DNA from: an archaeon
GTDB taxonomy: Archaea; Undinarchaeota; Undinarchaeia; Undinarchaeales; JBDRKL01
Direction: 5' to 3'
DNA length: 47,655 nt
Assembly: GCA_043814055.1 (NCBI GenBank)
Contig: JBDRKL010000013.1
Coordinates: 1 to 47,655, forward strand
Under the pieces are notes generated by a model. It saw only the letters and a program-made list of their open reading frames with translations, made no database searches and was not told the origin of the DNA. A program made the translations under genes and the position numbers. Below are positions 5,285-47,655 of the stretch, piece after piece (positions within the stretch are counted from its first letter, which is position 1; every line of letters starts with the position of its first letter).

Positions 5285-5764
5285 TTATTCCTTCTGCTCT
5301 TCAGTTACCTTTTTCTCAGGGTTTGCAACAGTTATTCCCTCAATGCCGAAGCTTCTCTCAATTTCGCCAATCATCATATTGCAGTCCTGCTTAATCCTGT
5401 CAAGATAAACCAGCATTCGTTCTTTCTGCTTTGCAATTTCCTCAAGCTGCTCATACTTCTTTATAGCTCTGTGGAAATCTCCAGCCTCAATAACAGTGTA
5501 AGGCGACTTGTTCATGTCCTTTGCAACGCGCTTGCACATCTCGCCGAGCCATTCGTTCATCTCTTTCTTCACGCGGGCGCGAATCATCTTTTCCTTGTCC
5601 AGCGAGCTCTTCATGTGCGCAACTACGCGCGCGTTCGGGAAAGGCAATCGCTCTTCATCCGCCAGTTCCTGCTCAAGCGCAACATCCTCGTTTGCTACTT
5701 CTTCAGCCGCTGGCTCTTCTGCTGCAGCTTCCTTGTTTTCTATTTGTTTTTCTTCTTTTGTCAT
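5285..5764 (-). CDS. Atypical histone-fold protein with acidic N-tail and coiled-coil C-terminus
   Basis: LPFPNARVVAHMK..VKKEMNEWLGEMCKRVAK..TVIEAGDFHRAIK resembles histone/NF-YB fold; E-rich N-terminus. Confidence 0.65.
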   Translation of the reverse strand: MTKEEKQIENKEAAAEEPAAEEVANEDVALEQELADEERLPFPNARVVAHMKSSLDKEKMIRARVKKEMNEWLGEMCKRVAKDMNKSPYTVIEAGDFHRAIKKYEQLEEIAKQKERMLVYLDRIKQDCNMMIGEIERSFGIEGITVANPEKKVTEEQKE

Positions 5765-5765
5765 T

Positions 5766-5840
5766 TCAAAGCACCTCCCATTTTACCAGCTTTGAAATAC
5801 ACACAAAGCTGGTTAGCTTTGTCAACCTTTGTTGTGTCAT
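5766..5840 (-). other. 76-bp twin-hairpin module containing a 24-codon leader ORF (MTQQRLTKLTSFVCISKLVKWEVL)
   Basis: SD gagggtga upstream; ends TGA-A-ATG; stem ATTTCAAAGC/GCTTTGAAAT; homologous to 24764-24838. Confidence 0.65.
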
Positions 5841-5872
5841 TATATTTCACCCTCTTTTTGAGTATTAAAACA

Positions 5873-5916
5873 ACACGCATGAATGCGTGTGTGTAAATCA
5901 TTTTATGATTTACGAC
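5873..5916 (+). repeat. Twin-hairpin module (hairpin-GT-hairpin-GAC)
   Basis: ACACGCAT/ATGCGTGT then GTAAATCAT/ATGATTTAC then GAC. Confidence 0.55.
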
Positions 5917-17279: not shown

Positions 17280-17377
17280 TGGGAGAGGCCGGATTTGAAC
17301 CGGCGACCACGGCGTATTCCTGTTTCTTTTTAAGAAACACCCGAACGCCGTATCATACCAAGCTAGACCACCCTCCC
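17280..17377 (-). tRNA. tRNA-Pro(CGG) with a 24-nt intron at 37/38 (17316-17339); CCA not encoded
   Basis: GGGAGGG/CTCTCCC acceptor, CGGCG-TT-CGG-G|intron|A-CGCCG anticodon arm, GCCGG-TTCAAAT-CCGGC T arm. Confidence 0.95.
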
Positions 17378-23890: not shown

Positions 23891-24304
23891 ATGGCAGCAC
23901 CAATGAGTGAAATGTTCAATTTCCTCTACATGACCAAGGTTCCGGCATCATTCAGCCTGCCTATTACAATTCTGCTTGTTTACGCTGTCCACTTACTCGT
24001 AGCTTCCTCAATACTCTATTACGCAGTGCGCCTTAGCGGCGCCCAGCTAACCCCTGGCACTGGATTCTCAAAAGCCCTCACCGCAACTTTTGTCCGTGAC
24101 ATTCTCTTCATACCATTGGTTCTAATGGGTTTCCTAATACCTTTCTTCGGCCTGTTCATAGCACTAGTAATCTGGATGGGCATTGTAAAATTGGTGTTCA
24201 ACATAAGCTGGGCGCGCACAGTACTCGCATTCCTAATCAGCATAATCCTGCCGCTTGTTATCCTGCTGTTTATACTATTGCCACTGTTCGCGCTTCTGCT
24301 CTAG
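23891..24304 (+). CDS. Hypothetical multi-pass membrane protein
   Basis: About four hydrophobic helices; TATA-like ttttaaat upstream. Confidence 0.7.
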   Translation: MAAPMSEMFNFLYMTKVPASFSLPITILLVYAVHLLVASSILYYAVRLSGAQLTPGTGFSKALTATFVRDILFIPLVLMGFLIPFFGLFIALVIWMGIVKLVFNISWARTVLAFLISIILPLVILLFILLPLFALLL

Positions 24305-24762
24305 AGCTGTTCCTCTATCAGGTCCTTCTCCATAATCCGCTCGCAGAACTTGCATCTCAGCCTTATCGGGTCCTTGCTCTCAACAGTGAACAGCGGAACA
24401 ATCGGCTCGCCCTGGTTCGTTACGCAGTTTGGGTTCGCGCACTTTATTGAGTCCTCAATCTCGTCCGGGACTTCAACTTTTTTCTTCTCCGCGACAGTGT
24501 AGTCCTTTATGATGTTTATAGTGGCTTTTGGGGCAATCAGCGCGAGCCGGTTGATTTCCTTTGGCCTAAGTATCTTGTCCTCAATCTTTACAATGTCCTT
24601 TGTCCCTGACTTTCCCTTGACATTCATCGCCACCGCAACAGTGTATTCGCAGTTCTTGTGTATTCCAAGCGCCTTTGCAACGCTCGTACTGCTCCCCGCA
24701 GGCAGGTGGTCAATAACTGTCCCGTTCTTAATCTTCTTAATCGTTAGTTCTTTTTCGCTCAT
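24301..24762 (-). CDS. pyrI: Aspartate carbamoyltransferase regulatory chain
   Basis: IKNGTVIDHL, KDIVKIE, CANPNCVT..RCKFCE. Confidence 0.96.
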   Translation of the reverse strand: MSEKELTIKKIKNGTVIDHLPAGSSTSVAKALGIHKNCEYTVAVAMNVKGKSGTKDIVKIEDKILRPKEINRLALIAPKATINIIKDYTVAEKKKVEVPDEIEDSIKCANPNCVTNQGEPIVPLFTVESKDPIRLRCKFCERIMEKDLIEEQL

Positions 24763-24763
24763 T

Positions 24764-24838
24764 TCAAAGTCTCACCTCCTTCTCCAGCTTTGAAATGCAC
24801 ACGAAGCGAACCAAATTCATAGAGCTTTGTGTCGTCAT
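24764..24838 (-). other. 76-bp twin-hairpin module containing a 24-codon leader ORF (MTTQSSMNLVRFVCISKLEKEVRL) between pyrB and pyrI
   Basis: ATG overlaps the pyrB stop (ATGA) with SD ggaggt; ends TGA-A-ATG of pyrI; stem CATTTCAAAG/CTTTGAAATG. Confidence 0.65.
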
Positions 24839-25767
24839 TTTACCTCCACCCCCAGAACGCCTGCAAGCAGCGCCATCCTGACCGGAACTCCGTAGTATGC
24901 CTGCTGGAAATACCTTGCGAATTTCGTGTTGTCCACCTCGGAGTCAATTTCATAAACCCGCGGCAGAGGGTGCATCACAATCATGCCCTCCTTTGCCTTC
25001 TCCAGAAGTTCAATGTCAACCTTGTGTTCACTCTTAACTCGCTCATATTCCTCCGGCGCCGGGAACCTCTCTTTCTGAATTCTCGTGACATACAGCACAT
25101 CAACATCCCCTACAACATCGCTCAAACTTTCTTTCTCCTCAATTTCAACCTCAAACTTATGCTTCAGCGAAATCGTGAAGTCCCGTGGCATCTTCAATTC
25201 TTTGGGTGAGGCAAAAACCATGTCCGCCCCGAGCATGGCGAGCGCGGCGGACAGTGAGTGGGCAGTTCTTCCATACTTCAAGTCTCCTGTTATCGCAACT
25301 TTTAATCCCTTGATTTTGCCCTTCTCCCGTATCATTGTGTAAAGGTCAAGAAGCGTTTGCGTCGGGTGTGCGTGCGGCCCGTCTCCGCCGTTAAGTATCG
25401 GAACCTTTGAAACATCAGCCGCGTGCTTTGCCGACCCCTCAACAGGATGCCGCATCGCTATAACGTCGCAATACTGCTCAACAGTCCTTATCGTGTCTGC
25501 AAGATTCTCCCCCTTCTTCACAGAAGTTCCTGCAGTGTCAGAGAACCCAATCACAGAGCCTCCGAGCCTTAGCATAGCGCTCTCAAAGCTCAGCCTCGTC
25601 CTGGTGCTCGGCTCAAAAAACAGCGTTGCAAGAATCTTCCCCTTCAAAAGGTCTGATTTCCCGCTCTCAATAACTTTCTCGCACCTCTCGGCCTGTTTCA
25701 GGATATAGTCAATATCTTCCTTGGTCAGGTCTGTAAGCGTGAGTATGTCTTTGCCTTTAATGCTCAT
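24835..25767 (-). CDS. pyrB: Aspartate carbamoyltransferase catalytic chain
   Basis: FFEPSTRTRLSF, HPTQTLLD, GDLKYGRT, MHPLPR; start at ATG 25767 after SD gggaggt. Confidence 0.97.
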   Translation of the reverse strand: MSIKGKDILTLTDLTKEDIDYILKQAERCEKVIESGKSDLLKGKILATLFFEPSTRTRLSFESAMLRLGGSVIGFSDTAGTSVKKGENLADTIRTVEQYCDVIAMRHPVEGSAKHAADVSKVPILNGGDGPHAHPTQTLLDLYTMIREKGKIKGLKVAITGDLKYGRTAHSLSAALAMLGADMVFASPKELKMPRDFTISLKHKFEVEIEEKESLSDVVGDVDVLYVTRIQKERFPAPEEYERVKSEHKVDIELLEKAKEGMIVMHPLPRVYEIDSEVDNTKFARYFQQAYYGVPVRMALLAGVLGVEVK

Positions 25768-25887
25768 TCTAAACCTCCCTATAATTAGAAAGTTAATTTG
25801 ACTCAAGGCACTTAAAAAGGTTGCGGTGCCCCAATGAGAAACAATATATATTATGGGAAACACAGAATAATTATCTGATTATTTTTT

Positions 25888-26066
25888 CTAAAGTTTCCTT
25901 GCGAAAGTCAAAAATTCCACACAGACTTTGCTCTTTATGACTGTGTGTCTTCCTAACTTTTCTATACTTTTCGTGCAAAAGTTAAGAATTCCACACAGAC
26001 TTTGCAATTTGTGACTGCGGGTCTTTTTGACCTTTCTTACAATTTCCTTGCGAAGGTCAAAAATCC
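25888..26066 (-). repeat. Tandem 74-75-bp modules reiterating the trmI 3' end
   Basis: FLTFARKL*, FLTFARKV*, FLTFARKL* with stops at 26037, 25962, 25888; shared gcaaagtctgtgtggaatt. Confidence 0.85.
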
Positions 26067-36088: not shown

Positions 36089-36574
36089 CTAAACCACTTT
36101 CCCGCCCTGATACTTCCCGTCATACTTCTTAACTCCGCCTTCAACTTTTTCAAAAATAATCTGCCCAACCCTTGCCCCACGCTCAACCTCAAATTCAAAC
36201 TCGCCCTGATTCTTCATACCAAAAGTCAAAGTCCCATTAAAACCAGGGTCAATCAATGCAGTAAAAAGTGAAACCCCGCAACGCTGCAGCGTGCTCCTCT
36301 GCCTCATCCACGCGCACAAATCGCTCGGCATATTAACTTTTTCCATAGTCTCAACCAGCACGTACTCATTGGGTTTTAAAATAATAGTATTCTCAGCAAC
36401 TTCCTCAATCTCCGGGGTCTGCCTGTCATCAACCCCAAGCTTCGCCCCGCTCTTCAACCTGTAAATCTTCCCAATCCTCAAATCAACCCCGCAGCTCTCA
36501 ATGTGCTTCTCTTCAAAGTTCTCAAGCAAACCTTCCTTGCAAAGCTCCAGAATCTTTTCACTTCCTAAAATCAT
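36089..36574 (-). CDS. dcd: dCTP deaminase / trimeric dUTPase family
   Basis: GVDLR, RSTLQRCG, IDPGFNG, RVGQIIF, YDGKYQ. Confidence 0.85.
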   Translation of the reverse strand: MILGSEKILELCKEGLLENFEEKHIESCGVDLRIGKIYRLKSGAKLGVDDRQTPEIEEVAENTIILKPNEYVLVETMEKVNMPSDLCAWMRQRSTLQRCGVSLFTALIDPGFNGTLTFGMKNQGEFEFEVERGARVGQIIFEKVEGGVKKYDGKYQGGKVV

Positions 36575-37959
36575 TTTTTCATCATACTCCTCTCAAACCT
36601 CTCAACAAACTTCTCTATGTCATTACTTGGTATAAATCCTCCGCACGCAACTGAATGGCCCCCACCAAACCCGCCAAATGATTCAGCAGCCACTCTCAAA
36701 GAATTTGCCATATCAATCTTCTGCAGAACAAGAACTCTTGAACACCTTGCAGAAATCTTATAACCTCCACTAGTCATTGAAAATCCAAGCATCGGTTTGT
36801 AAGGGTCTCTATTCTCCCCAGCCAAACTCATCCCTGCCACGGTTCCGATAATATTTGATGCAATCTCTTCCCCTGCGTCAAAATACTGCGCATAGCCCAG
36901 CGGTCCAACCTTAATCCCGTTCTCCTCTACAAAGTTCAAACCCTTTGCAATATTCTGCCTGTGCTTCCTAAGCAGGCTCATCAATGAATCATAATATTTT
37001 CCCCTTTTTCCCTCTGCAATCCTGAGCCCAACCTCAGGCCTGCGGTTCCTTCCTGTCGCGTTCAGGCAGGTTGAGAATTCCGTCACACCCTTCAGCTCAG
37101 TCCTGTCATCCTCCCTCACGTTGGTATAATGGTCCCCAACAAACAGCTCAGGAATATGCGCCATTAATTCAGGCGGCAATTTCTCCATTGCTCTCTGAAT
37201 CAGCTCTGAAGTAATCTTCTGCCTCTCCTCGTGCTTCAAGTCAATCGCAGCTCTCCACAAATCGCCTTCCTTGAGCGGAATATTCAGCGCCTGCAAAAGC
37301 GAAATTGAACCGCTTTCATTATTTGAAATCCCCGGAACAAACGGGTCAGTGAAATATTGCAGTGACTTGTAAACTGGTCTCGTGTGCCTGCCATAGAGCA
37401 ATAAATCAGTTTCCATTTCCAAAACTTTCTCATCAATCGCATCTTTCAAAATTTCAGTGTTAATCCCCTCAAGCTTTCCCCAGAAATTCTGAATGTCTCC
37501 TACTGCGCCAACAATCGCAAGCCCGCTCAGGTCAATATTCTCCTTGTCCATTGCTTTTGCCAGGAAATAGCTCAGCCCTGCGCCCGAAACTTCCCTTGAG
37601 CCATCCAGCCCCTTAAGGCACGGGTTCACGTGCACAAGCCCTTTCCACGCCTCGCCGTGCACCTGGTGGTGGTCAAGAATAATCGTTTTCTCTTTCCTGA
37701 ACTTCTCTGCGAGAACATTCAAATTCCCGGAGCCCAAATCTGTGAAAATATTCAATTCGTCCGGCTCAAGATTCGCAACAGATTTCTTTGAAATGCTTGC
37801 CAGCGGGACAACATTGAAATCCTTCCCTTGCCTCTTCAACGCTTTTGAAATAATCCCGCCCGCGCTCAAGCCATCAGCATCAATATGCGTGACTATCTGG
37901 ATTGACCTGGAATTCTTGACAAGCTGGCAAGCCTCTTCATATTGTTTCTGCATGAACAT
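36571..37959 (-). CDS. DHH/DHHA1 phosphoesterase, archaeal RecJ/Cdc45-like
   Basis: HIDADGL, DLGSG, LDHH, GAVGD, GGGH; start uncertain (37953 or 37959). Confidence 0.9.
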   Translation of the reverse strand: MFMQKQYEEACQLVKNSRSIQIVTHIDADGLSAGGIISKALKRQGKDFNVVPLASISKKSVANLEPDELNIFTDLGSGNLNVLAEKFRKEKTIILDHHQVHGEAWKGLVHVNPCLKGLDGSREVSGAGLSYFLAKAMDKENIDLSGLAIVGAVGDIQNFWGKLEGINTEILKDAIDEKVLEMETDLLLYGRHTRPVYKSLQYFTDPFVPGISNNESGSISLLQALNIPLKEGDLWRAAIDLKHEERQKITSELIQRAMEKLPPELMAHIPELFVGDHYTNVREDDRTELKGVTEFSTCLNATGRNRRPEVGLRIAEGKRGKYYDSLMSLLRKHRQNIAKGLNFVEENGIKVGPLGYAQYFDAGEEIASNIIGTVAGMSLAGENRDPYKPMLGFSMTSGGYKISARCSRVLVLQKIDMANSLRVAAESFGGFGGGHSVACGGFIPSNDIEKFVERFERSMMKK

Positions 37960-45995: not shown

Positions 45996-46553
45996 ACCAA
46001 TTAGAAACTCAGCACCATATTTAATAATCAAATAGCTCAGCGGCACGTGGATGAGCGCGAACTTGAAACAGCCAACGAAGCTGTGCCCGGTCACTGTGTA
46101 GAAAATTCCAGTGCCCAAGTCATAAATCAAGACAAGAATCAAACCCGCAAGAGCATAAGTCCCCATAATTCCATAAACCCACGGCGCAAGCACAGCAAGC
46201 GCGCTCATCCCAATCATTGCAACAACAACATCCTGCGGCCTCTCAATTGTGAAAAACCTGCTCAACCCAAGCGCCGAAGCGCCAACCAATGCCCCGGCAA
46301 GTGAGCCATACTTCAGCGCAGCAACAAACATGGCGAGCGTAACGAGCTCAATGGGCCAAGCATCAGGAGCAAACTTCTGCGGAATCCGTGAGCCAACCGC
46401 GAGCAGTAGCAAGAATCCTACAAAACCTATATCGGCGTAAGCGAATCCTAAAAAGATGTTGGTGGAGAGGACTGCGAGGAGAGCAATTGCTACGAAGCCA
46501 ATGTATTTCGCAAATTCTTTTGGAGTGGTTTGGACAACTTCTTTACGGCTCAT
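45990..46553 (-). CDS. Multi-pass membrane protein, possibly ECF S-component-like
   Basis: About six TM helices, IELVTLAMFVAALKYGSLAGALVG pattern. Confidence 0.6.
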   Translation of the reverse strand: MSRKEVVQTTPKEFAKYIGFVAIALLAVLSTNIFLGFAYADIGFVGFLLLLAVGSRIPQKFAPDAWPIELVTLAMFVAALKYGSLAGALVGASALGLSRFFTIERPQDVVVAMIGMSALAVLAPWVYGIMGTYALAGLILVLIYDLGTGIFYTVTGHSFVGCFKFALIHVPLSYLIIKYGAEFLIGF

Positions 46554-46554
46554 T

Positions 46555-47415
46555 TCAAACTGTAACCTCTTTTTCCCCTTCTAGCGAGGCAGTACCGCCA
46601 ACTTGGACTTCTTGGATGGTCTTCCCTTTTGTCTTTAATCTCACTCTAATCTCTGACGGCTTATTCATCGTGTATCCCTGCTCAAAAATAAGATTTTTAT
46701 AATCCACAGCCACTTTGTGCTTGTAAAGATAACATCCTAAAATCCCGCTTGAAGTGCCTGTTGCGGACTCTTCTGGTATTCCATAAAGCGGAGCAAAGTT
46801 CCTGCAGTGTGCAGTTGAGTTATTTTTGGTTTCAAGTGTAAAAACGTGCAGCCCCATCACATCATACTTCTTACTAAGTTCAGTTATTCTCTTAAAATCT
46901 GGTTCAAACATTTCTAAAGATTTAATATCCTTGATTGGCACTATTATATCTCGCAACCCAGCTGAAACAATCTGGCTAGGCAGCTCTGCACTAAGTTGCT
47001 CTTCATCCAAATTCAAACAATCAGCAATCTCTTTCTTGTTTATTTCTTCAAAAAATTTGGGCAGGGCCAAATCCATAAACACCAAATCTTTTTTAATTTC
47101 TATTCCCAAAACACCAGCTCTTGTTTCCTGTTTGTATTTTCCTGGCTTTGCTAATCCTTTCTTCGCCAACAATGAATAAGTTGCAATGGTCGCATGTCCA
47201 CAAATATCAATTTCCTTTGCCGGCGTAAAAAATCTAACTTTAAAATCTGCTTTATCCGATTTCTGAACAAACGCAGTCTCAGAAAATCCAACTTTCCTCG
47301 CAATAGATAACATCTCCGAATCAGAAAGCGAATCTGCATCCAGCACAACACCTGCTAGATTTCCGCCTCCTGCTGTTTTTGCAAAGGAATTCAAAAGATA
47401 TACTTTTATTTTCAT
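46555..47415 (-). CDS. PhzF family isomerase/epimerase
   Basis: GGNLAGVV, FSETAFV, RFFTP..EIDICGHAT, EESATGT, EQG; likely start ATG 47415. Confidence 0.92.
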   Translation of the reverse strand: MKIKVYLLNSFAKTAGGGNLAGVVLDADSLSDSEMLSIARKVGFSETAFVQKSDKADFKVRFFTPAKEIDICGHATIATYSLLAKKGLAKPGKYKQETRAGVLGIEIKKDLVFMDLALPKFFEEINKKEIADCLNLDEEQLSAELPSQIVSAGLRDIIVPIKDIKSLEMFEPDFKRITELSKKYDVMGLHVFTLETKNNSTAHCRNFAPLYGIPEESATGTSSGILGCYLYKHKVAVDYKNLIFEQGYTMNKPSEIRVRLKTKGKTIQEVQVGGTASLEGEKEVTV

Positions 47416-47426
47416 TTTTGAAAATA

Positions 47427-47655
47427 TGGTAGCGGGGGATGGACTCGGGAACGCAGAACCTAACGGTTCCGCACCTCCCAAGGTGGCTCTCCACTTTGTG
47501 AAGCCACTTTTGTGATTAGTAGCGGGGGATGGACTCGGGAACGCAGAACCTAACGGTTCCGCACCTCCCAAGGTGGCTCTCCACTTTGTGAAGCCACTTT
47601 TGTGATTAGTAGCGGGGGATGGACTCGGGAACGCAGAACCTAACGGTTCCGCACC
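47427..47655 (-). repeat. Perfect 90-bp tandem repeat (about 2.5 copies, runs off the window), each copy carrying an initiator tRNA-Met-like 3' end
   Basis: Units start at 47429, 47519, 47609; minus strand CGAGT-CCATC-CCCCGCT-A(CCA) followed by two hairpins. Confidence 0.88.

Follow-up and report, generated by a model that had tools for sequence, protein, structure and literature searches.

Twin 24-codon mini-ORFs ahead of pyrI and a predicted histone-fold gene in an archaeal contig: homologous copies of a 76-nt module that may have been inserted at start codons

Features of the two loci

In this study, two short open reading frames (ORFs) of 24 codons each were analysed in a stretch of archaeal DNA of 47,655 nt (contig JBDRKL010000013.1; hereafter the window, to which all positions refer). 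The first upstream ORF (uORF-A) is situated between pyrB and pyrI, the genes for the catalytic and regulatory chains of aspartate carbamoyltransferase, and the second (uORF-B) precedes a gene for a 159-amino-acid (aa) protein. The two mini-ORFs, with the hairpins associated with them, are referred to as copy A and copy B of one element or module; copy B lies approximately 19 kb from copy A on the same strand. All features of the module and both genes served by it are on the minus strand. The features at the pyrB-pyrI locus are as follows, SD denoting Shine-Dalgarno sequence and MFE minimum free energy.

24835..25767, minus strand: pyrB, aspartate carbamoyltransferase catalytic chain (Pfam OTCace_N and OTCace; N-terminus MSIKGKDIL)
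24842..24847, minus strand: SD-like GGAGGT within the 3′ end of pyrB, 3 nt upstream of the uORF-A ATG (read from the sequence)
24764..24838, minus strand: uORF-A, 24 codons plus TGA, peptide MTTQSSMNLVRFVCISKLEKEVRL (sequence)
24801..24830, minus strand: hairpin 1 of copy A, ACAAAG (24830-24825) pairing with CTTCGT (24806-24801), one A-C mismatch (MFE fold at 37°C)
24784..24807, minus strand: conserved 24-nt core of copy A, consisting of the 3′ half of hairpin 1, GTGTG, the 5′ half of hairpin 2 and CTGG (blastn, 22/24 against 5786-5809; pattern statistics)
24760..24797, minus strand: hairpin 2 of copy A, 10-bp perfect stem with the pyrI ATG (24762-24760) in its 3′ arm (inverted-repeat and folding analysis)
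24301..24762, minus strand: pyrI, regulatory chain (Pfam PyrI and PyrI_C; start in agreement with relatives)

The features at the second locus are the following.

5863..5870, minus strand: TATA-like TTTTAATA, beginning at -30 from the uORF-B ATG, a putative promoter element
5766..5840, minus strand: uORF-B, 24 codons plus TGA, peptide MTQQRLTKLTSFVCISKLVKWEVL (sequence)
5785..5813, minus strand: competing hairpin ACCAGCTTTG/CAAAGCTGGT, 10 bp and perfect, in copy B only (inverted-repeat search; folding)
5786..5809, minus strand: conserved 24-nt core of copy B (pattern statistics; blastn)
5762..5799, minus strand: hairpin 2 of copy B, in which 5763-5772 and 5789-5798 form 10 Watson-Crick pairs and a U.G pair is added on the outside (inverted-repeat search, folding)
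5285..5764, minus strand: gene behind copy B, encoding a protein of 159 aa whose N-terminal tail is acidic and for which a histone fold is predicted (family alignment and structure model)

An earlier note on this DNA, made from the letters, had described the anatomy of both copies, and its description was confirmed. The ATG of uORF-A at 24838 overlaps the pyrB stop codon TGA (24837-24835) in the form ATGA, and the TGA of uORF-A ends 1 nt ahead of the pyrI ATG (24762). The hairpin 2 stem of copy A, CATTTCAAAG/CTTTGAAATG, has arms of 10 nt that are 100% complementary (24760-24769 and 24788-24797) and are separated by 18 nt; its 3′ arm covers the pyrI ATG, and GGAGGTG (24779-24773) is inside the 18-nt loop. 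The unlinked copy at 5766-5840 has the same length, carries FVCISKL at residues 12-18 as does uORF-A, and has the same CTT-TGA-A-ATG end. In this copy the perfect Watson-Crick stem ATTTCAAAGC/GCTTTGAAAT sits one base shifted, and a U.G pair is outermost; the 3′ arm, which GGAGGTG (5778-5772) abuts, includes the start ATG of the next gene (5764-5762).

The pyrI start was checked against 1435 PyrI relatives, for the best 120 of which the N-termini were compared. The query N-terminus aligns with those of the 120, which confirms the start at 24762, and an N-terminus resembling FVCISKL was seen in none of these best 120.

Homology of the two copies

Ungapped alignment from the mini-ORF ATG to the next ATG showed 53 identical nucleotides out of 79. 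Identity was concentrated in four blocks, ATGAC (5/5), ACAAAG (6/6), the 24-nt core (22/24) and CTTTGAAATG (10/10), while the stretches between the blocks were at random-level identity (0/3, 5/17, and 5/14). Both differences in the core are synonymous third-position C/T changes (TTC/TTT and TGC/TGT), as the earlier note had stated. Overall, 43 of 45 positions were conserved in stem halves and ends versus 10 of 34 in loops, the blocks having been defined after the alignment was seen; mismatch clustering of this degree was equalled in 170 of 20000 permutations.

Searching the window with the 19-nt core and allowing up to 3 mismatches gave 2 matches against 0.05 expected, and at least 2 matches were obtained in none of 100 shuffles. 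Perfect hairpins of at least 10 bp were present at 6 distinct loci of the window, 3 of these within the two elements (raw count, 10 overlapping entries versus 1.5 in shuffles). As judged from these comparisons, the two copies are homologous. GGAGGTG is found in both hairpin 2 loops, which are otherwise identical at 5/14 positions, with the motif displaced by 3 nt; its retention despite randomised loops appears to be the best sign of selection on downstream initiation. The earlier note had also called the element portable, and this term is borne out by homologous copies ahead of two unrelated genes, pyrI and the one for the putative histone-fold protein.

Two other likenesses within the window were set aside. 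The sequence CTTTGAAA occurs at 13 sites against 4.8 ± 2.2 expected, and 4 of the 13 fall in the elements themselves, leaving 9 outside. An exact match to the 10-mer CTTTGAAATG at 37786, in the RecJ gene, has no other likeness to the module and was judged to be a chance match.

Hairpins and predicted folding

The module contains two hairpins, hairpin 1 formed by ACAAAG and CTTYGT and hairpin 2 by ATTTCAAAG and CTTTGAAAT. The hairpin 1 pairs are formed at 5 of 6 positions in copy A and at 6 of 6 in copy B. Over the 16 stem pairs, 14 are invariant, one changes from C-G to U-G, and one is A-C in copy A. Hairpin 2 alone was predicted to weaken with temperature in both copies, from -11.1 kcal/mol at 37°C through -4.4 kcal/mol at 60°C to 0 at 80°C. 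In the predicted ensemble, the probability of the downstream AUG being unpaired was 0.01-0.03 in copy A and 0.02-0.39 in copy B, with GGAGGUG mostly unpaired. For the 101-nt fold of copy B, the z-score was -2.64.

At 60 and 80°C, the competing hairpin of copy B, which would free the downstream ATG, is the MFE fold. Its counterpart in copy A is mismatched (GCUUCG/CAAAGC); a conserved switch is therefore not supported, since the competing hairpin is perfect only in copy B.

Junctions and initiation contexts

Of the tight junctions between co-oriented neighbours in the window (31 pairs), the commonest was the -4 ATGA overlap (5/31), followed by the +1 spacing TGA-A-ATG (2/31). uORF-A is joined to pyrB by the former type and to pyrI by the latter. 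One of the two ordinary pairs joined by TGA-A-ATG, which is outside the module, served as a comparison site.

46551..46559, minus strand: ordinary gene pair, a PhzF-family gene joined by TGA-A-ATG to a 187-aa ORF of unknown function

This junction shares 12 nt (TTTGAAATGAGC) with copy A and is without an upstream complementary arm or hairpin.

An all-A/T 8-mer was located exactly at -30 for 7 of 45 gene starts in the window and between -34 and -28 for 11 of 45. Many first genes in the window have such an 8-mer near -30 and are without an SD, and these A/T 8-mers approximately 30 nt before ATGs suggest mostly leaderless mRNAs. The uORF-B ATG has its sole all-A/T 8-mer exactly at -30, a position at which such an 8-mer is found for 24 of 1348 background ATGs. 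By the surrounding letters, both mini-ORF ATGs thus stand in initiation contexts of native type, of two different kinds. Since the mini-ORF starts look like native gene starts, our reading of the element was shifted away from a purpose-built leader. Both copies have three of the properties expected of a coupled ORF pair, namely an upstream start that is credible by its context, a stop near the downstream start, and a predicted inhibitory structure over the downstream start.

Direct repeats with a period of 76 nt surround the module, AAATGA in copy A and AATGACA in copy B. When the 76 nt between the AAATGA repeats are removed, an ordinary pyrB-ATGA-pyrI overlap with a GGAGGT SD is left. Under an insertion model, the GGAGGT at 24842-24847 would have been the original ribosome-binding site of pyrI. 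Excision of the 76 nt as an archaeal mRNA intron of the bulge-helix-bulge type was considered and rejected, as no predicted fold pairs the junctions; no dedicated test was run.

The gene behind copy B

The 159-aa protein had no matches in Pfam or NCBIfam. It belongs to a family of 33 members including the query, all metagenomic and none functionally named, one of them labelled as a hypothetical protein from a Woesearchaeota metagenome-assembled genome (MAG); the motif LP.xNA.VV is invariant in the family. A model built from the family alignment had a mean predicted local distance difference test (pLDDT) value of 78. The PDB structures at the top of the list of matches were all histone-fold proteins, including NF-YB/NF-YC, H2A/H2B and archaeal histones. 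The best match had an E-value of 2.4e-3 (none reached 1e-3), target-normalised template modelling (TM) scores were up to 0.79, and the root-mean-square deviation was 1.8 Å over 67 columns. In the model, an extra long C-terminal helix is added to the histone fold. The protein is thus predicted to be a histone-fold protein, with no evident link to pyrimidine synthesis.

The same Met begins all 33 family members, and an FVCISKL-like extension is present in 0/33. Two relatives were called from an earlier start, giving MI-MTEEEK (P0005) and MKRIGEIN-MSEEE (P0007). Ahead of the uORF-B ATG the window reads ...ATA-ATG and, in another frame, ...QKEGEI plus 2 nt, while NGRCFE precedes the present ATG of the 159-aa gene. 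P0005 and P0007 would be without the module, because their extensions resemble the sequence before the uORF-B ATG and not NGRCFE; this is a hint that the module is lacking in two relatives of the histone-fold gene.

The interval 5873-5913, which lies between the TATA-like box of copy B and a 90-aa ORF upstream of it, contains two short hairpins without mismatches, ACACGCAT/ATGCGTGT and GTAAATCAT/ATGATTTAC, and after them TGTTTT; these probably form a terminator. This region also gave a weak opposite-strand match to a covariance model of the module (15.8 bits, E 0.19).

The mini-ORF peptide

In the mini-ORF frame, 16 codons differ between the copies, 5 synonymously and 11 non-synonymously, compared with 0/15 and 2/15 synonymous differences in the other frames (pooled, 2 vs 28). 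The synonymous excess gave a one-sided Fisher p of 0.04, for frames that are not independent and for two sequences only. Every conserved residue falls in a conserved stem half. Frame 3 is likewise open in both copies, so the openness of the mini-ORF is no evidence for its use, and neither 24-mer has runs of repeated codons or residues or sensory codons. The earlier note had allowed that the match of the peptides might be a by-product of conserved RNA structure, and the coincidence of conserved residues with stem halves, together with the open frame 3, largely bears this out.

Possible insertion of the module and relay of ribosomes

We tentatively propose, as a reading that we find quite possible, that the twin leader ORFs are two copies of one inserted 76-nt module that relays ribosomes to the downstream gene. 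In two unrelated genes, a two-hairpin module would have been inserted, or copied in, directly behind the native start codon. The module would consist, in order, of hairpin 1 (ACAAAG/CTTTGT), the GTGTG linker and hairpin 2 (ATTTCAAAG/CTTTGAAAT), the loop of which carries GGAGGTG as an SD of full strength, and the end of the module, ...CTT TGA A ATG, would re-create a start codon for the body of the gene. The old ATG would then open an identical 24-codon frame in both copies. A module placed in the same register relative to the old ATG would account for the shared frame and for FVCISKL in both copies, with no need for a peptide function.

Ribosomes would reach the old ATG by different routes. 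In copy A they would arrive coupled to pyrB through the ATGA overlap, and in copy B they would begin at the 5′ AUG of a leaderless mRNA. Translating ribosomes would cross the module and melt hairpin 2, in which the new ATG is otherwise paired; they would terminate 1 nt before the new ATG, where the same or a fresh ribosome, aided by the SD in the loop, would initiate. The mini-ORF would in this way relay coupling across an insert that would otherwise break it. The homology of the copies, their anatomy and the contexts of their starts are shown by the sequence; insertion, mobility, the relay and translation of the mini-ORFs are inferred. According to a review of translational coupling (PMC12548453), NTGA is the commonest junction in archaea as well, and coupling in Escherichia coli and Haloferax volcanii reporters dwindled with spacing, with little remaining past approximately 30 nt; RNA unfolding and reinitiation are the two models considered there. 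As coupling fades beyond 30 nt, pyrB and pyrI should be uncoupled if the 72 nt between them were left untranslated, and should stay coupled across a translated spacer.

The earlier note had suggested a translational-coupling or attenuation device that sets the PyrB:PyrI stoichiometry. The anatomy fits coupling, with credible starts, a stop 1 nt from the next start and a hairpin over that start. Attenuation is not supported, there being no sensory codons and a perfect competing hairpin in copy B only. A role specific to PyrB:PyrI stoichiometry is not supported either, given the second copy, which serves a gene with no evident pyrimidine link, two relatives of which appear to be without the module. 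Pyrimidine-specific control is unlikely, because the second gene is predicted to encode a histone-fold protein.

Several observations weigh against the proposed insertion and relay. The flanking direct repeats are weak evidence of target-site duplication, because 20 of the 46 listed gene starts begin with ATGA; convincing terminal inverted repeats were not found, only CAAAG/CTTTG near the ends, the reverse strand of copy A scoring just 10 bits, over hairpin 2, against a covariance model of the module and that of copy B 23 bits, and no transposase was found for the module. For the empty site of copy B, the basis is 2 of 32 relatives with 3 to 5 matching residues, and an indel is needed; over-called starts informative on an empty site at copy A were seen in 0/120 of the listed PyrI relatives. 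The synonymous excess in the mini-ORF frame hints at peptide-level selection. Compensatory changes were seen in 0/16 stem pairs, so the hairpin structure is compatible with the data yet unproven by covariation. The 101-nt fold of copy A had a z-score of only -0.46, with 60 of 200 shuffles as stable.

The searches for further copies weigh on the same side. No third copy was found in the window when it was searched, without filters, with the covariance model built from both copies. This model scored the two copies themselves at 105 and 104 bits, by construction, and its other hits in the window had E-values of at least 0.19, apart from the reverse strand of copy B. The exact 19-nt core was found at 6 loci in a scan of one genome each of 185,579 species, and none of the 6 is related to the module: all lie in bacteria, a single Roseovarius locus in three species accounts for three of them, and the listed flanks show no likeness beyond the 19-mer. 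With 18.5 bases specified and both strands of 596 Gb scanned, about 9 chance matches had been estimated; since the scan was for the exact core, diverged copies would escape it. Plasmids gave no match, and phages gave one chance match of 22 nt in a Bacillus phage. With nothing related in genomes, plasmids or phages, the proposed mobility stands on two copies in one contig, with 2 copies in 47.7 kb.

Other searches were also negative. Within the window, blastn-short detected further fragments of 9-14 nt only. At gathering thresholds, the only Rfam match in the whole window was a tRNA, and a search at E up to 10 around both copies gave sub-threshold noise only. FVCISKL was not found in the literature searched, supplements being outside the search. 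No literature was found on the combination of miniature inverted-repeat transposable elements (MITEs), archaea, start codon and Shine-Dalgarno, and nothing relevant to an archaeal pyrB-pyrI spacer ORF was seen at the level of titles among the literature matches listed.

Alternative explanations

The element could instead be a shared cis-acting site, either a dimeric DNA operator (TTTCAAAG-N-CTTTGAAA) or a site to which a small RNA or a protein binds, through which both genes would be co-regulated, with the mini-ORF incidental. This is unlikely in our judgement. Such a site would show what is seen here, conservation limited to the four blocks of the two hairpins and loops at random level, and the element is quasi-palindromic: the covariance model also matched the opposite strand of copy B (23 bits, E 0.0055). 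The plus-strand folds also had z-scores (-3.65 and -4.35) below those of the mRNA strand. A shared site, however, leaves unexplained the conservation of the ATG, the frame, the stop, the SD in the loop and the +1 junction; Rfam has no match to it, covariation is absent, and nothing shows transcription of the opposite strand.

A second alternative is a sensory leader peptide, a conserved uORF whose translation or stalling would switch the hairpins and tune pyrI and the second gene to a metabolite. Both ORFs are intact, equal in length and provided with good starts, the synonymous excess in their frame is slight (p=0.04), and in copy B a perfect 10-bp competing hairpin would free the ATG. Mycobacteria have leaderless short ORFs by which a sequestered ribosome-binding site is unmasked, according to a preprint (10.1101/834739). 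On the other hand, no codon runs able to sense a metabolite are present, the competing hairpin is mismatched in copy A, and the two genes are functionally unrelated. The open frame 3, the coincidence of conserved residues with stem halves, and the two relatives of the second gene that seem to be without the module also argue against a sensory peptide, which we regard as rather improbable.

The idea of insertion can also be carried further, to a portable cassette that seeks start codons. It would land on AATGA starts, make a 24-codon relay ORF, bring an SD and a hairpin gate, and regenerate the ATG, and the FVCISKL peptide or the hairpin would put pyrI and the histone-fold gene under one ribosome-mediated control. 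We consider this extended version improbable.

Programmed +1 frameshifting at CUU UGA A is very improbable. If the ribosome slipped to UUU, the codons read next would be GAA AUG, and the 24 residues would become joined to the downstream protein; both copies do have CTT TGA A with an upstream GGAGGTG, the +1 frame being that of the downstream gene. In-frame N-terminal extensions are, however, found in 0/33 histone-fold proteins and in 0/120 of the listed PyrI relatives, the distance from GGAGGTG to CUU is 3 nt in copy A and 0 nt in copy B, and each downstream gene has its own ATG at an N-terminus conserved in its family.

A chance likeness of two unrelated leaders would be helped by the frequency of ATGA starts (20/46) and of CTTTGAAA (9 sites outside the elements against 4.8 ± 2.2), but is negligible in view of the 19-mer statistics (2 matches vs 0.05 expected), four blocks in the same order and spacing over 79 nt (53/79 ungapped), and the location of 3 of the 6 strong hairpin loci of the window in these two places.

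Other features of the window

The pyrB start is probably the ATG at 25767, which is preceded by the SD GGGAGGT and fits the start of the Pfam domain. The GTG at 25863 given by the ORF lister is probably an over-extension. Between 25767 and 25863 (minus strand), pyrB has an apparent untranslated leader with the strong SD GGGAGGT and a hairpin, GGCAC...GTGCC, around a T-run, and a TATA-like sequence (ATAATATATAT) is situated upstream of this hairpin. Directly upstream of the pyrB promoter region, 25884-26060 is a tandem repeat with a period of 74 nt and approximately 2.4 copies that are 79-82% identical. Every unit contains CACACAG...CTGTGTG, and the repeats may be a set of regulator-binding sites for pyrB. 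They were also considered as relatives of the module and rejected, as the local scores were within the null (equalled by 24% and 86% of random chunks).

The window is archaeal by gene content, which includes Cdc48, RadB, an archaeal RecJ, a family B DNA polymerase, DnaG, NAC, SecDF and a GCD14/TrmI-type methyltransferase. Its GC content is 48%, and the fraction of the residues IVYWREL in its proteome is 0.39, which by a composition formula suggests a mesophilic host. The closest PyrI in the protein collection was 70% identical and the named matches were mostly from Thermoplasmatota MAGs, which indicates poor sampling of the lineage.

Another pyrimidine gene, pyrD (943-1869), overlaps radB (1866-2603) through ATGA on the minus strand (together 943-2603), with 23 kb between pyrD and pyrBI in the contig. 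A gene of the dCTP deaminase/dUTPase family is located at 36089-36574. At 17280-17377 (minus strand), Rfam identified a 98-nt tRNA (47 bits), while ARAGORN found no tRNAs in the window; this is probably an intron-containing archaeal tRNA. The last stretch of the window, 47429-47655, is taken up by a perfect tandem repeat with a 90-nt unit, in 2.5 copies that are 100% identical; it lies either within the 5′ end of the PhzF-family ORF or upstream of it. As the window is probably the whole contig, this repeat may be an assembly artefact of the contig end. Full GGAGGTG sites are scarce in the window, with 11 over both strands.

Comparison with known systems

That an upstream ORF can unmask a hairpin-covered start or hand ribosomes over to it is a principle already known. 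What appears to be new is that one compact module recurs at two unlinked genes of an archaeon and sits precisely at start codons, and that a spacer ORF would relay coupling inside pyrB-pyrI. If the relay is true, it shows that a tight archaeal gene pair, pyrB-pyrI, tolerates a 76-nt insert by means of a throw-away mini-ORF, and it provides a natural, compact and transferable coupling module with an SD in the loop, a start in the stem and a stop 1 nt from that start. For small-protein discovery, a caution follows: conserved twin mini-ORFs can come from the same module placed in the same register at two starts.

The end of the mini-ORFs resembles the +1 site of prfB in having a CUU-UGA stop context after an SD-like element, and differs from it in that the spacing is not kept, fused homologues are absent and the downstream genes have independent start codons. 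To our knowledge, release-factor autoregulation has no archaeal counterpart. In enteric bacteria the pyrL ORF precedes pyrB, and through it transcription termination is made responsive to UTP. Like pyrL, uORF-A is a short ORF tied to a pyrB-pyrI operon; unlike pyrL, it is situated between pyrB and pyrI, is without U-rich pause or terminator logic, and recurs at a gene outside pyrimidine synthesis.

With the leaderless attenuators of mycobacteria, as described in the preprint (10.1101/834739), the module shares a leaderless 5′ mini-ORF (copy B), a duplex sequestering the ribosome-binding site, and the occurrence of the design at several loci. The attenuator ORFs described there have consecutive Cys codons that sense cysteine, whereas the mini-ORFs of the window contain one Cys each and are free of codon runs. 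Copy A differs further in being internal to an operon, and the host is archaeal.

The coupled gene pairs covered by the review PMC12548453 have in common with both copies a stop within a few nucleotides of the next start, -4 or +1 junctions, a hairpin covering the start, and an SD; the mechanisms of coupling in archaea are, according to the same text, little studied. In contrast to usual coupling as described there, the upstream ORF is here a 24-codon spacer and not a protein gene, and the same spacer is found at two unlinked genes. In copy A, moreover, the spacer sits between genes that are normally coupled directly, which would make the relay a two-step one.

MITEs and repeats of the REP/Correia type, finally, resemble the module in length (approximately 70-76 nt), in richness in hairpins, in occurrence at unlinked sites, in short flanking direct repeats, and, as two relatives of the second gene hint, in absence from the corresponding site. 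The module differs from MITEs in having no clear terminal inverted repeats, only two known copies and no partner transposase. A further difference is its position precisely at start codons, together with the SD that it carries and the ATG that it would regenerate.

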